From Candidatus Thorarchaeota archaeon (GTDB lineage Archaea > Asgardarchaeota > Thorarchaeia > Thorarchaeales > Thorarchaeaceae), in assembly GCA_003345555.1 (NCBI GenBank), contig PRDJ01000018.1:1-32000 (forward strand): DNA of 32,000 nucleotides, written 5' to 3'. The notes under the pieces were generated by a model, which had not been told where the DNA came from, made no database searches, and worked only from the letters and a program-made list of their open reading frames with translations. Every line of letters starts with the position of its first letter. The first letter of the stretch is position 1. Of this stretch, positions 15,915-26,113 are shown one piece after another. Position numbers and translations under genes: made by a program.

Positions 15915-16023
15915 TTACATCACCGGCAAGACCCATGGTAGCTCTTTAATAGTTTCTATCTGTGAAATAATGAAAACATCACCATACGCAACGAGTCGAG
16001 GCACCAAGTCTGTGAAGAGAGAA

Positions 16024-16142
16024 TGTGGCAGCTGATAGGCCTGTCACGGGCTCGCGCACCGCACATGTCCTATCACGATAGTTGGCTTAACTTCGGAGAT
16101 CGGAACGGGATCCGGTGAACCCAGCTATCTGTGGCCGCCATC
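16024..16142 (-). rRNA. rrf: 5S rRNA
   Basis: Minus strand reads GATGGCGGCCACAG...CACCGGATCCCGTTCCGATCTCCGAAGTTAAGCC...GCTGCCAC; helix I TGGCGGC/GCTGCCA; about 119 nt; ends uncertain by 2 nt. Confidence 0.93.
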
Positions 16143-16372: not shown

Positions 16373-16512
16373 TGGTGGGGACGCAGGGATTCTCCCGCAG
16401 CCGCGCAATGCGACTACGCTTTGAACCCTGGATCGACGAGTTTCACTTCTTTATGACCCCTTGGTTCATAAGATCTGGAGCCCGTTGCCTTTCCGGTCTG
16501 GGCCACGTCCCC
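16373..16512 (-). tRNA. trnW: tRNA-Trp(CCA) with two introns (33 nt at 37/38, 16442-16474; 30 nt at 59/60, 16390-16419) and encoded CCA
   Basis: Acceptor GGGGACG/CGTCCCC plus ACCA, D arm GCC/GGC, anticodon stem ACGGG/CTCGT with loop CT-CCA-G|A, T stem CAGGG/CCCTG with loop TTCAAA|T; removing both inserts gives a standard 77-nt cloverleaf. Confidence 0.92.
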
Positions 16513-22967: not shown

Positions 22968-24572
22968 ATGTCTGCCACAGATGAAGACCTCGGTCTCCGA
23001 AGAGAGATCATAGAAATACTGCTTAGCTCAGAAGGCTCTCTCGACAAACAGGCTGTCAATCGCATCAAGAACTCTGTCTGTGCAAAGTACAAGCGAGCTG
23101 AGATTCCCTCGAATGCAGACATACTTGAGGCTGCTCTGCCCGAAGAACTTGAGGTACTTACACATCTGCTGCAAAAGCGTCCTGTGCGGACAGTGTCAGG
23201 CGTTGCCGTTGTTGCCGTGATGACCAGCCCCTGCCGCTGTCCTCATGGGAAATGCGCGTATTGTCCTGGAGGCCCAGAGAATGGTGTGCCCCAAAGCTAC
23301 ACCGGCTTTGAACCGGCCACAATGAGGGGCTTACAGAATGAATTTGACCCATACAGGCAAGCGGAGAGCAGACTGAACCAACTGAGAGCGACCGGACATT
23401 CTGTCAATAAGACAGAGCTAATTGTCATGGGTGGAGACTGGTGTTCAAAAGAGCAGAGCTATCGAGAGTGTTTCGTCAAGGGCTGCCTTGATGCGATGAA
23501 CGGCGGGATTAGTAGTGACTTCGAAACCGCGAAGGCCCTCAACGAAGTCTCTCAAGTCAGAAACGTCGGCATGACGTTTGAGACACGACCAGACATGATA
23601 ACTCCTCAAGCTGTGGATGACATGCTGAGGCTAGGTGCAACACGGGTTGAGATTGGCGTTCAGAGCCTTTCCGACTCAGTACTCAAACTGGTCGAACGTG
23701 GACATGATGTTGCGGCTACAGTTCGCGCCACAAAACTGCTCAGAGACTCTGGACTCAAGGTCTGTTACCATATCATGCCCGGCCTTCCCAATACCACGCC
23801 TGAAGATGACTTGGCCGGGTTTGAGCAGCTGTTCTCCGACTCCCGATTTCGTCCTGACATGCTGAAAATCTACCCTACACTGGTCATCAAAGGTACGAAG
23901 CTTCATGATTGGTGGGTGCGTGGCGACTATATTCCCTACGAAACAGAATCGACAGTGGACTTGTTGGCCCGGGCCATCAGCAAGATGCCTGAGTATGTTC
24001 GGATTCAGCGTATGCAGAGAGACATACCCCTTCACAAGATTGAAGCGGGCCTGACCAAGGGCAACCTGCGGGAACTCGTACACGAGAGGATGGGGGCTCT
24101 GGGTCTCAGGGATCGTACGATAAGATACAGGGAAATCGGTCATTACGAGATGAGGACGGGGCAGAAGGTCAGTATCAATCATCTACAATTCGTCTGCCGC
24201 GACTATGAAGCCTCAGATGGAACTGAAACGTTTTTGTCATTCGAAGAGCCTGCCTCTGACGTAATTTGCAGCTTCCTTAGACTTCGCAAGCCAAGCAAAG
24301 ATGCGCACCGACCTGAGCTTGCGGGAGGTCGAGCTGCGATTATCCGTGAGCTGCGGGTTTATGGCCCCGTTGTTGATATTGGAAAGAGGAAACCTGGGGC
24401 TTGGCAGCATTTAGGCCTGGGAGAGGAGCTTGTTTCTGCAGCCGAGAGAATAGCCAGAAAGGATTACCACGCAGAACAGCTTCTGGTCAACAGTGGACTT
24501 GGCGTCAAGCAATACTATAGAGACCTTGGTTTCAGAGACACAGGTCCATACTTGGTCAAGGCTCTGCGTTGA
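22968..24572 (+). CDS. elp3: Elp3 tRNA uridine(34) acetyltransferase (radical SAM plus KAT domain)
   Basis: RTVSGVAVVAVM, CPHGKCAYCPGG, PQSYTG, MGGD, ETRPD, KIYPTLVI, RIQR..RDIP, RE..VYG, WQH.GLG, SG.GVKQYYR.LGF. Confidence 0.95.
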   Translation: MSATDEDLGLRREIIEILLSSEGSLDKQAVNRIKNSVCAKYKRAEIPSNADILEAALPEELEVLTHLLQKRPVRTVSGVAVVAVMTSPCRCPHGKCAYCPGGPENGVPQSYTGFEPATMRGLQNEFDPYRQAESRLNQLRATGHSVNKTELIVMGGDWCSKEQSYRECFVKGCLDAMNGGISSDFETAKALNEVSQVRNVGMTFETRPDMITPQAVDDMLRLGATRVEIGVQSLSDSVLKLVERGHDVAATVRATKLLRDSGLKVCYHIMPGLPNTTPEDDLAGFEQLFSDSRFRPDMLKIYPTLVIKGTKLHDWWVRGDYIPYETESTVDLLARAISKMPEYVRIQRMQRDIPLHKIEAGLTKGNLRELVHERMGALGLRDRTIRYREIGHYEMRTGQKVSINHLQFVCRDYEASDGTETFLSFEEPASDVICSFLRLRKPSKDAHRPELAGGRAAIIRELRVYGPVVDIGKRKPGAWQHLGLGEELVSAAERIARKDYHAEQLLVNSGLGVKQYYRDLGFRDTGPYLVKALR

Positions 24573-24598
24573 GTCCGTGAACGTCCAAGGAGGAAGTA

Positions 24599-24716
24599 TG
24601 GCGCCGAGGAGGAGATTGATTCGGCCATGACGGAGTGTCAGGACCTTTGAACTCCTGAGTGCAGAGCACACCGGTTTTCAAGACCGGCGCCTTAATCCGG
24701 GCTTGGCTACCTCGGC
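24599..24716 (-). tRNA. trnS: tRNA-Ser(TGA) with a 30-nt T-loop intron (58/59, 24617-24646) and encoded CCA
   Basis: Acceptor GCCGAGG/CCTCGGC plus GCCA, D arm, anticodon stem CCGGT/ACCGG with loop CT-TGA-AA, long variable arm GTGC-TCT-GCAC, T stem AGGAG/CTCCT; removing the insert gives 88 nt. Confidence 0.92.
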
Positions 24717-24806
24717 CCACCTGCAGGTTTCTTCCTGTAGGACGCCCCCCGTTGGAAACTGCTTTTAAGCTTCTTGGACTGCCCGATAGGGAAGGAGCGA
24801 TTCCGG

Positions 24807-25238
24807 TTGAAGCATGGCTTCAGATACCATGGACATACATCTGATGTCACTATAGAATGCTGGGCTCCCACTCTCGAGAAGGCATTCGAGGAGGCCGCAC
24901 TGGCAACCCTTGAGGTAATGGTCGACACTTCTCATGTGAGAGCCCTCGAGTCAGTGGAGGTCAGCGTCAAAGGAGTCGATTTGAAAGAGCTTCTTCTATC
25001 TTGGATTGGGCGGCTCATCGCTCTTGTGGACATCAACCAGCAGTTCTATTCGAGATTCGAGGTGAAAGGAATCTCGGAAGCCTCTGATGGATTCTTGCTC
25101 AATGGCAATGCGTGGGGAGAGACAATAGATTTCACAAGGCACAAGCCACGAACCGGGGTCAAAGCCATGACCTACGCTGACATGAGAATCGAGCAGTCAA
25201 GGGTAAAGACGGCGCTCTGGTTCACACTCGATTTGTAG
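24807..25238 (+). CDS. Archease (RtcB tRNA ligase cofactor)
   Basis: HTSDV, TLEKAFEEAA, LLLSW, GETID, VKAMTY, FTLDL C-terminus; start placed at TTG 24807 rather than 24774. Confidence 0.92.
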   Translation: MKHGFRYHGHTSDVTIECWAPTLEKAFEEAALATLEVMVDTSHVRALESVEVSVKGVDLKELLLSWIGRLIALVDINQQFYSRFEVKGISEASDGFLLNGNAWGETIDFTRHKPRTGVKAMTYADMRIEQSRVKTALWFTLDL

Positions 25239-25258
25239 GATAGGAGGTTCTGAGACTG

Positions 25259-26113
25259 GTGCTTGTTGTAGCGATTCCGGACACATCACTCGCAGATTGC
25301 TCAGACTTGCGTGAAAAGACATTGAAAGCAGGCATCTTCGCACGCGCTCTTGCGGTCTTCAGAGTTGATAGAGTGATTATCTTCAGTTCTCCACAAGTCC
25401 GTGATAGTCAAAAACGGGATGCCGACCTCCTTCCTAGATTGCTAAAGTACATGGATACGCCCCAATATCTACGCAGGAAGCTGTTCCCGCAGACTCCTTG
25501 GCTGAGGTATGCTGGGCTTTTGCCTCCTCTTAGAACGCGCAGTCACCCGCTTAATGCAAAAATCTCTGGTCTTGTCAAGGGTGAGTTGAGATGGGGTGTC
25601 CCTGTGGGTGCTGGCAAGGTGGACATAGGTATTGAGAGGCCTCTCGAGTATCCTGCTCCTTTGGATGAAGGCAAGCCGGCTCTCTTTCGAATCGCAGAGT
25701 TGCAGCCCCATGTCCGGCTTGAGGTTGTTCAACGAAGTGATGCAGACCTGTACTGGGGTTTTGAGGTACAATCCATCGAGGATCTTGTCCAGTATCTGAA
25801 AGACTCCGCACATGCGACACGCATTGCCTTTTCACGGATGGGTGAGCCCTTTGAGACTCTTCAGGCGGAAATCCAGTCCAGTGTCAACAAGACCCGGAAT
25901 GTTATTGCACTATTTGGCGGGCCCTATCAAGGATTGCGCGAGATTTTCGGTGATAGGCTCAAGTCGCTTGAGACGAATACCGAGTTCTGGGTCAACACCA
26001 TTCCCGGCCAAGGCACTGAAACAGTCCGCTTAGAAGAGGCATTGTTTGCTAGCTTGGCCTTGATCAATAGCTGCGTAGGTTCTCTGATATCAAGACCGGG
26101 TTTTCATGTCTGA
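25259..26113 (+). CDS. SPOUT-family RNA methyltransferase (COG2106; C9orf114/SPOUT1-like)
   Basis: VAIPDTSL, ARALAVFRVD, YMDTPQYLRRKLFP, AGLLPPL, FGGP, NTIPGQGTETVRLEEA; conserved position before rpl3. Confidence 0.9.
   Translation: MLVVAIPDTSLADCSDLREKTLKAGIFARALAVFRVDRVIIFSSPQVRDSQKRDADLLPRLLKYMDTPQYLRRKLFPQTPWLRYAGLLPPLRTRSHPLNAKISGLVKGELRWGVPVGAGKVDIGIERPLEYPAPLDEGKPALFRIAELQPHVRLEVVQRSDADLYWGFEVQSIEDLVQYLKDSAHATRIAFSRMGEPFETLQAEIQSSVNKTRNVIALFGGPYQGLREIFGDRLKSLETNTEFWVNTIPGQGTETVRLEEALFASLALINSCVGSLISRPGFHV

Follow-up and report, generated by a model that had tools for sequence, protein, structure and literature searches.

The minus strand of positions 24599-24716 of the window, by which we mean the whole 32,000-nt stretch of Thorarchaeota DNA that was analysed, encodes a tRNA-Ser(UGA) gene of 118 nt, made up of tRNA positions 1-73, an intron and an encoded CCA end. 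The gene has the layout of a class II tRNA, with a 7-bp acceptor stem, a D arm, an anticodon arm carrying the anticodon UGA (24678-24680, minus strand) and a long variable arm. The T-stem strand AGGAG is followed by 37 nt where a 7-nt T-loop is expected, and then by CUCCU; every feature other than this T-loop insert is intact, and the discriminator base is G. Exon 1 (24647-24716, minus strand) covers tRNA positions 1-58 and ends in ...AGGAGUUCAA, while the 30-nt intron (24617-24646, minus strand) was placed in the T-loop, between positions 58 and 59, by a strict scan for BHB motifs. Exon 2 (24599-24616, minus strand) supplies A59, U60, the 3' strands of the T stem and of the acceptor stem, G73 and CCA. 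Upon deletion of the intron, the sequence is recognized by ARAGORN as tRNA-Ser(tga), with a score of 118.3 and a length of 88 nt including CCA, in agreement with a preliminary description of this DNA that had read the segment as a tRNA-Ser(TGA) whose T-loop holds an intron of 30 nt with a BHB motif. That description left the strand of the gene, here seen to be the minus strand, unstated.

With the insert in place, ARAGORN under default settings makes no tRNA call over the whole window, and the Rfam tRNA model remains below its gathering score for tRNA-Ser(UGA), aligning to the 5' two thirds only at 21.9 bits; orthologs that lack the intron and whose T arm is identical reach 53.7-57.5 bits over the full Rfam model. 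The host genome (2.28 Mb in 82 contigs, 51% G+C) contains a single match to tRNA-Ser(UGA), to be read with its completeness of 93%, as a second, intronless gene may lie outside the assembled part. The window belongs to contig C18 of this genome, whose ribosomal protein L3 shares 97% identity with that of a MAG labelled Candidatus Thorarchaeota; the next relatives, at 73-74% identity, bear this label in most cases, and the organism is accordingly an Asgard archaeon. Three DNA runs from two wetland studies, among which the source sample may figure, contain contigs that cover the whole stretch holding the gene without a mismatch, and no intronless joint was present in the contigs of the four DNA runs examined. 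The sequencing runs listed for positions 24300-25300 include none of RNA. Other kinds of interrupted gene were discarded: the two exons follow one another in the regular order over a span of 118 nt, unlike those of a split or permuted tRNA gene, the size of 30 nt rules out a group I or group II intron, and a C/D-box guide RNA within the intron was rejected on the grounds that the intron is too short and that CUGA, read by eye, is not kept among orthologs. The gene lies between two plus-strand neighbors, a divergently oriented Archease gene (24774-25238; Pfam PF01951, E = 2.6e-34) and, on its other flank, an Elp3 gene (22968-24572). Archease is a cofactor of the tRNA ligase RtcB, and Elp3 belongs to a family of enzymes that modify the wobble uridine of tRNAs.

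A strict 3-4-3 BHB scan of a 201-nt region returned a single motif of less than 80 nt, located at 58/59, which can be written as GGA-GUUC-AA/A-GGUC...GGCC-GAAU-CA/A-UCU, the slashes within the bulges denoting the cuts. The central helix is formed by the exon strand GUUC, spanning G53 to C56 (24649-24652, minus strand), and the intron strand GAAU (24619-24622, minus strand), with G53 in a wobble pair with U. It is bordered by the 5' bulge AA/A, with the cut after A58 (24646-24648, minus strand), and by the 3' bulge CA/A, with the cut before A59 (24616-24618, minus strand). On the intron side, the motif continues into a hairpin, the h' helix (24623-24645, minus strand), that reads GGUC-C-UGAC, loop ACUCC and GUCA-U-GGCC, so that its inner helix consists of 4+4 bp; RNAfold assigns this hairpin a free energy of -8.6 kcal/mol and also recovers it in the minimum free energy (MFE) structure of the precursor. 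On the exon side, the strand GGA (24653-24655, minus strand) pairs with UCU (24613-24615, minus strand) in a helix of just 3 bp that lies one register away from the pairing of the mature T stem. Hence, the motif has helices on both sides, as in the hBHBh' arrangement, the exon-side helix being weak. The MFE structure of the precursor (-46.5 kcal/mol) retains the T stem as well as the intron hairpin, with GUUC and GAAU unpaired, and the BHB conformer, at -41.5 kcal/mol, is 5 kcal/mol less stable. When the intron was shuffled 200,000 times with its composition preserved, 55 of the shuffled sequences had a 4-bp central helix together with an inner helix of at least 4 bp at this site. The helices GUUC/GAAU, GGUC/GGCC and UGAC/GUCA and both bulges are thus all present as first proposed, with two adjustments. 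The pairs GGUC/GGCC and UGAC/GUCA exist but form the intron-internal h' helix and not an outer helix, and the description of the motif as clean holds for its strict 3-4-3 geometry but not for its short, slipped exon helix, nor for a conformer that lies 5 kcal/mol above the MFE.

We searched all 87 Thorarchaeia genomes, in addition to an earlier search of 41 relatives, and obtained 71 readable copies of tRNA-Ser(UGA) from 16 Thorarchaeia genera. Inserts of 28-30 nt occupy the same T-loop site in 28 of these copies, with 28 different sequences, and the remaining 43 are uninterrupted, their loops being TTCAAAT (31 copies) or TTCGAAT (12 copies), precisely what splicing is predicted to leave. The 58/59 intron is found in 10 of the 16 genera and is variably present within four of them. 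The central helix is paired at all four positions in every one of the 28 interrupted orthologs (112 of 112 cells), its intron strand being GAAU, GAAC, GGAC or GAGC and always matching the exon, and the two inner pairs that adjoin the bulges are formed in 25 and 28 of the 28 sequences, respectively, as GC, AU, CG or GU. Taken together, 165 of 168 anchored cells are paired; once the 3' strand is displaced by 1-3 nt against its partner, the number falls to 26-81. The interior of the intron folds into a hairpin in each ortholog, with a stem sequence that differs between genera, and the exon-side helix comprises 2 bp in most of them. The 5' bulge reads AAG, AAA, GAA, AAT or GAT, and the 3' bulge AAA, ACA, ATA, CAA or AGA. 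From these alignments, the BHB structure appears to be maintained by selection through compensatory changes.

The order Elp3, tRNA-Ser and Archease is conserved in 19 of the 20 loci that were fetched with flanking sequence, irrespective of the presence of the intron, and the intron-bearing and intronless copies are therefore positional orthologs. Some genomes (G068, G015) carry two copies of tRNA-Ser(UGA). The ortholog of a congeneric genome (L003) contains an additional insert of 25 nt in the D-loop region besides its T-loop intron, and in the same genome (G003) the match to Elp3 is split in two at residue 320, perhaps by a frameshift.

The position of the cut deserves separate consideration, given that deletions of 30 nt after position 57, 58 or 59 all produce AGGAGTTCAAATCTCCT, with the loop TTCAAAT (AGGAG-UUCAAAU-CUCCU). 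A genuine intron cut at 59/60 or 57/58 would consequently leave the same mature tRNA as one cut at 58/59. Elsewhere in the genome, T-loop introns are indeed located at 59/60, in the genes for Lys UUU, Gln CUG and Val CAC, as well as at 56/57, and a 59/60 cut could rely on the native T stem for its outer helix, in the manner of tRNA-Trp. The strict 3-4-3 geometry, however, exists at 58/59 only, all 28 interrupted orthologs keep the four central pairs in the 58/59 register, and a slide of a single nucleotide reduces the paired cells from 165 to 52-81 of 168. The decisive evidence comes from eight orthologs without all-A bulges (L005, L006, L012, L033, L041, L043, L048 and L068), in which the last nucleotide of the 5' bulge is G or T and the middle one of the 3' bulge is C or T. 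In these eight, a cut at 58/59 alone yields the TTCAAAT or TTCGAAT loop of the 43 uninterrupted copies, whereas a cut at 59/60 or 57/58 would generate loops such as TTCAAGT or TTCACAT, which none of those 43 copies has. Bulge combinations such as AAG/ACA or AAT/ATA fit the observed loop by way of 58/59 only, and the cut is accordingly assigned to 58/59, where it had been placed from the single sequence; we consider it very improbable that the intron is cut at either neighboring site. This comparative argument for the cut is what the present sequence analysis adds, along with a survey of which copies of a syntenic locus have the intron and which lack it.

The ortholog data also bear on whether the insert is removed at all. 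If it were retained, the gene would be a pseudogene or would specify a tRNA with an enlarged T-loop, a reading that draws on the failure of default ARAGORN and of Rfam, at its gathering score, to call a gene. This is hardly credible for what is the sole tRNA-Ser(UGA) gene found in the genome, with the rest of the tRNA intact and at a locus that is syntenic with intronless, functional-looking orthologs. Moreover, the BHB motif is kept by compensatory changes in 28 sequences of 10 genera, which is not the behavior of a decaying or unspliced insert.

The second tRNA gene of the window, tRNA-Trp(CCA) (16373-16512, minus strand), contains two introns, one of 33 nt at 37/38 and one of 30 nt in the T-loop. 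It obtains 33 bits with the Rfam model, with inserts of 37 and 31 nt, and 113.6 with ARAGORN -i once 30 nt have been deleted; its T-loop cut, read by hand, falls at 59/60 and retains three of the four pairs of the central helix. A 5S rRNA gene (16023-16142, minus strand; Rfam, 60 bits) is located 230 nt downstream of it. The statement that both tRNA genes of the window have T-loop introns of 30 nt is hence borne out, and so is the absence of relatedness between the two, the similarity of the Ser and Trp introns amounting to z = 1.07.

Beyond the window, introns were sought across the genome by scoring exhaustive single deletions with ARAGORN, as the strict BHB scan missed many relaxed motifs; a pattern scan for T-loop inserts gave 246 mostly false hits in its first version and, in a stricter one, 21 hits, 8 of which are tRNA genes. 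At least nine of the approximately 41 tRNA genes carry an insert in the T arm, at four positions: 53/54 (Gly CCC), 56/57 (Ala GGC, Tyr GUA and Arg GCG), 58/59 (Ser UGA, the only T-arm intron at this site) and 59/60 (Lys UUU, Gln CUG and Val CAC). The ninth is Trp CCA, with a T-loop intron that falls at 59/60 on hand reading. Many other genes possess D-arm or anticodon-arm inserts of about 30-48 nt. Three genes of 107-137 nt, at C63:10064-10200 (Met CAU), C63:4191-4301 (Val UAC) and C10:62723-62829, did not yield to deletions made one at a time and are likely to contain at least two introns each; such multi-intron genes are incompletely parsed, and the genome-wide counts are therefore lower bounds. 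The 3' CCA is encoded in nearly all tRNA genes of this genome.

The abundance of T-arm introns raises the alternative that the Ser intron arrived recently as a copy of another tRNA intron of the same genome. Such transposition finds some backing in the three 30-nt introns at 56/57, in the genes for Ala GGC (C10:88970-89075), Tyr GUA (C63:28786-28892) and Arg GCG (C42:13239-13346), which are mutually similar (z of 4.3-5.6 against shuffled sequences). Their likeness implies some copying or a common constraint in this genome, and may reflect common descent, copying or only a shared pairing requirement. The Ser intron, on the contrary, shows no resemblance to any of the eight remaining T-arm introns (z of at most 2.0), and clearly related versions of it occupy the same site in the two other gene-bearing genomes of the genus and in nine further genera, so that a recent origin by transposition is scarcely tenable. 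The proposal that T-loop introns are widespread in this lineage, and are not the outcome of one recent transposition, had called for a re-scan of the tRNAs of the genome and its relatives; a re-scan of the genome, and of its relatives for tRNA-Ser(UGA), located further T-loop introns in the lineage and upholds the proposal, with at least nine genes and four positions in the genome and, for tRNA-Ser(UGA), 28 of 71 copies and 10 of 16 genera.

In view of the above, we are confident that 24599-24716 represents a functional tRNA-Ser(UGA) gene with a 30-nt, protein-spliced intron at 58/59 that is old within the Thorarchaeia and variably present among them. That the intron is spliced we infer from sequence comparison, and the genome encodes suitable candidates for the enzymes. 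It contains two paralogs of the tRNA-intron endonuclease EndA (PF01974). One, of 188 aa (C57:106124-106690, plus strand), finds its best match in the catalytic chain of the Aeropyrum pernix enzyme (3p1z_B, E = 1.2e-45) and aligns ungapped across the Crenarchaea-specific loop, its K43 being aligned with A. pernix K44. The other, of 232 aa (C63:16708-17406, minus strand), is divergent and, as read by eye from the sequence, lacks the catalytic histidine. As judged from these alignments, the 232-aa protein would fit a structural beta subunit and the 188-aa protein the catalytic alpha subunit of an (alpha-beta)2 enzyme. The A. pernix lysine in question, K44, is the conserved residue of the loop associated with broad substrate specificity, and both this L1 loop and the (alpha-beta)2 architecture of EndA have been reported for Asgard archaea (PMC5829648). 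The ligase RtcB is also encoded (C77:64086-65396; 592.7 bits).

The following course of events may be envisaged for the precursor. G53-U54-U55-C56 would pair with the GAAU near the 3' end of the intron to form the 4-bp central helix, leaving the splice sites in 3-nt bulges on opposite strands, AA/A and CA/A, and the motif would be flanked by the intron hairpin on one side and by the short exon-exon helix on the other. The latter helix would form only if the T stem slipped by one register, and the precursor would presumably adopt the BHB conformer on the enzyme. A heterotetrameric (alpha-beta)2 EndA with the broad-specificity loop on its catalytic subunit would then cut both bulges, and RtcB, aided by Archease, would join A58 to A59, after which the T stem would refold around the canonical loop UUCAAAU.

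The history of the intron was addressed with a tree of Archease and Elp3 for 20 syntenic loci, in which 9 of 17 inner branches are unresolved. The best tree implies seven changes in intron presence, only one of which is forced by well-supported branches, and intron labels do not cluster on it any better than in shuffles (333 of 500 were as low). The poor resolution of this two-protein tree means that the number or direction of gains and losses is not derivable from it. The coexistence of occupied and precisely empty 58/59 sites could be taken to indicate that BHB introns are still being gained or lost by an active process, a view that we regard as rather unlikely. Three processes come into question: introns might move by reverse splicing, spliced copies might bring about gene conversion, or variant tRNA-Ser genes might recombine with one another.

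Inserts of a second kind are relevant to the last of these processes. Many orthologs (L012, L016, L018, L044 and others) harbor an insert of 32-33 nt at or near 37/38, for which a strict BHB motif was found in L012 alone. The first part of the 37/38 inserts nearly repeats the opening of the 3' exon, comprising the 3' strand of the anticodon stem and a variable arm. In type, this repeated variable arm corresponds to the genuine one of L013 and L019, both of which are devoid of the insert. To judge by their sequences, the 37/38 inserts look like the result of partial duplication or of recombination between two tRNA-Ser variants, and their beginning as a near-copy of the downstream exon gives a hint of the latter.

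Introns comparable to this one are known from several sources. Non-canonical tRNA introns of the Thermoproteales and other TACK archaea are reportedly the subject of work by Marck & Grosjean in 2003 and by Sugahara et al. in 2008. The Ser intron shares with them the hBHBh' logic, the heterotetrameric EndA with a Crenarchaea-specific loop and the use of T-loop sites, but it is found in a different phylum, among Asgard tRNA genes of moderate G+C content that come from wetland metagenomes and not from hyperthermophiles. With the other T-arm introns of its own genome it has in common a length of about 30 nt, a BHB motif built on the T-loop and the same host enzymes, and it differs from them in its location at 58/59, in its unrelated sequence and in an outer helix that depends on a one-register slip of the T stem. 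The non-canonical introns published for Asgard archaea are likewise short, protein-spliced, located outside 37/38 and endowed with a BHB motif, those introns often being several per gene.

Within the Asgard archaea, disrupted tRNA genes were predicted in four genomes and linked to the L1-loop EndA by Kaneta et al. (2018), whose survey included one Thorarchaeota genome as a summary bar only (PMC5829648). Valentin-Alvarado et al. (2024) reported introns, often non-canonical, in 92-95% of the tRNA genes of Atabeyarchaeia and Freyarchaeia (PMC11291895). More recently, a preprint by Goswami et al. (2026) has catalogued intervening sequences in 90 Asgard genomes, finding that inserts in the T arm have the strongest canonical BHB motifs and leaving open the route by which introns arrive (bioRxiv 10.64898/2026.10.13.758758). 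Its focus is on Freyrarchaeaceae, Jordiarchaeaceae and Atabeyarchaeaceae, and the string 'Thorarchae-' is absent from its main text (10.64898/2026.10.13.758758). In the parts of these three sources that were consulted (PMC5829648, PMC11291895 and 10.64898/2026.10.13.758758), the tRNA-Ser(UGA) intron, the 58/59 site and the distribution over 71 copies are not described. Since abundant non-canonical introns and the corresponding type of EndA have already been published for Asgard archaea, the Ser intron constitutes a further example, and its reading as an intron, while correct, is not new for this group.

In practical terms, the genome would seem to lack a tRNA reading UCA if its genes were called without regard to introns. 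The Ser intron adds a well-documented case to the interrupted tRNA genes published for the Asgard archaea and leaves the general picture unchanged. Its splice position is unambiguous, its covariation is strong, and the copies of its syntenic locus divide clearly into those with and those without it; the set of orthologs could be used for the study of intron gain and loss. Should such gain and loss prove to be active, the locus would offer a tractable case for establishing how archaeal tRNA introns arrive.
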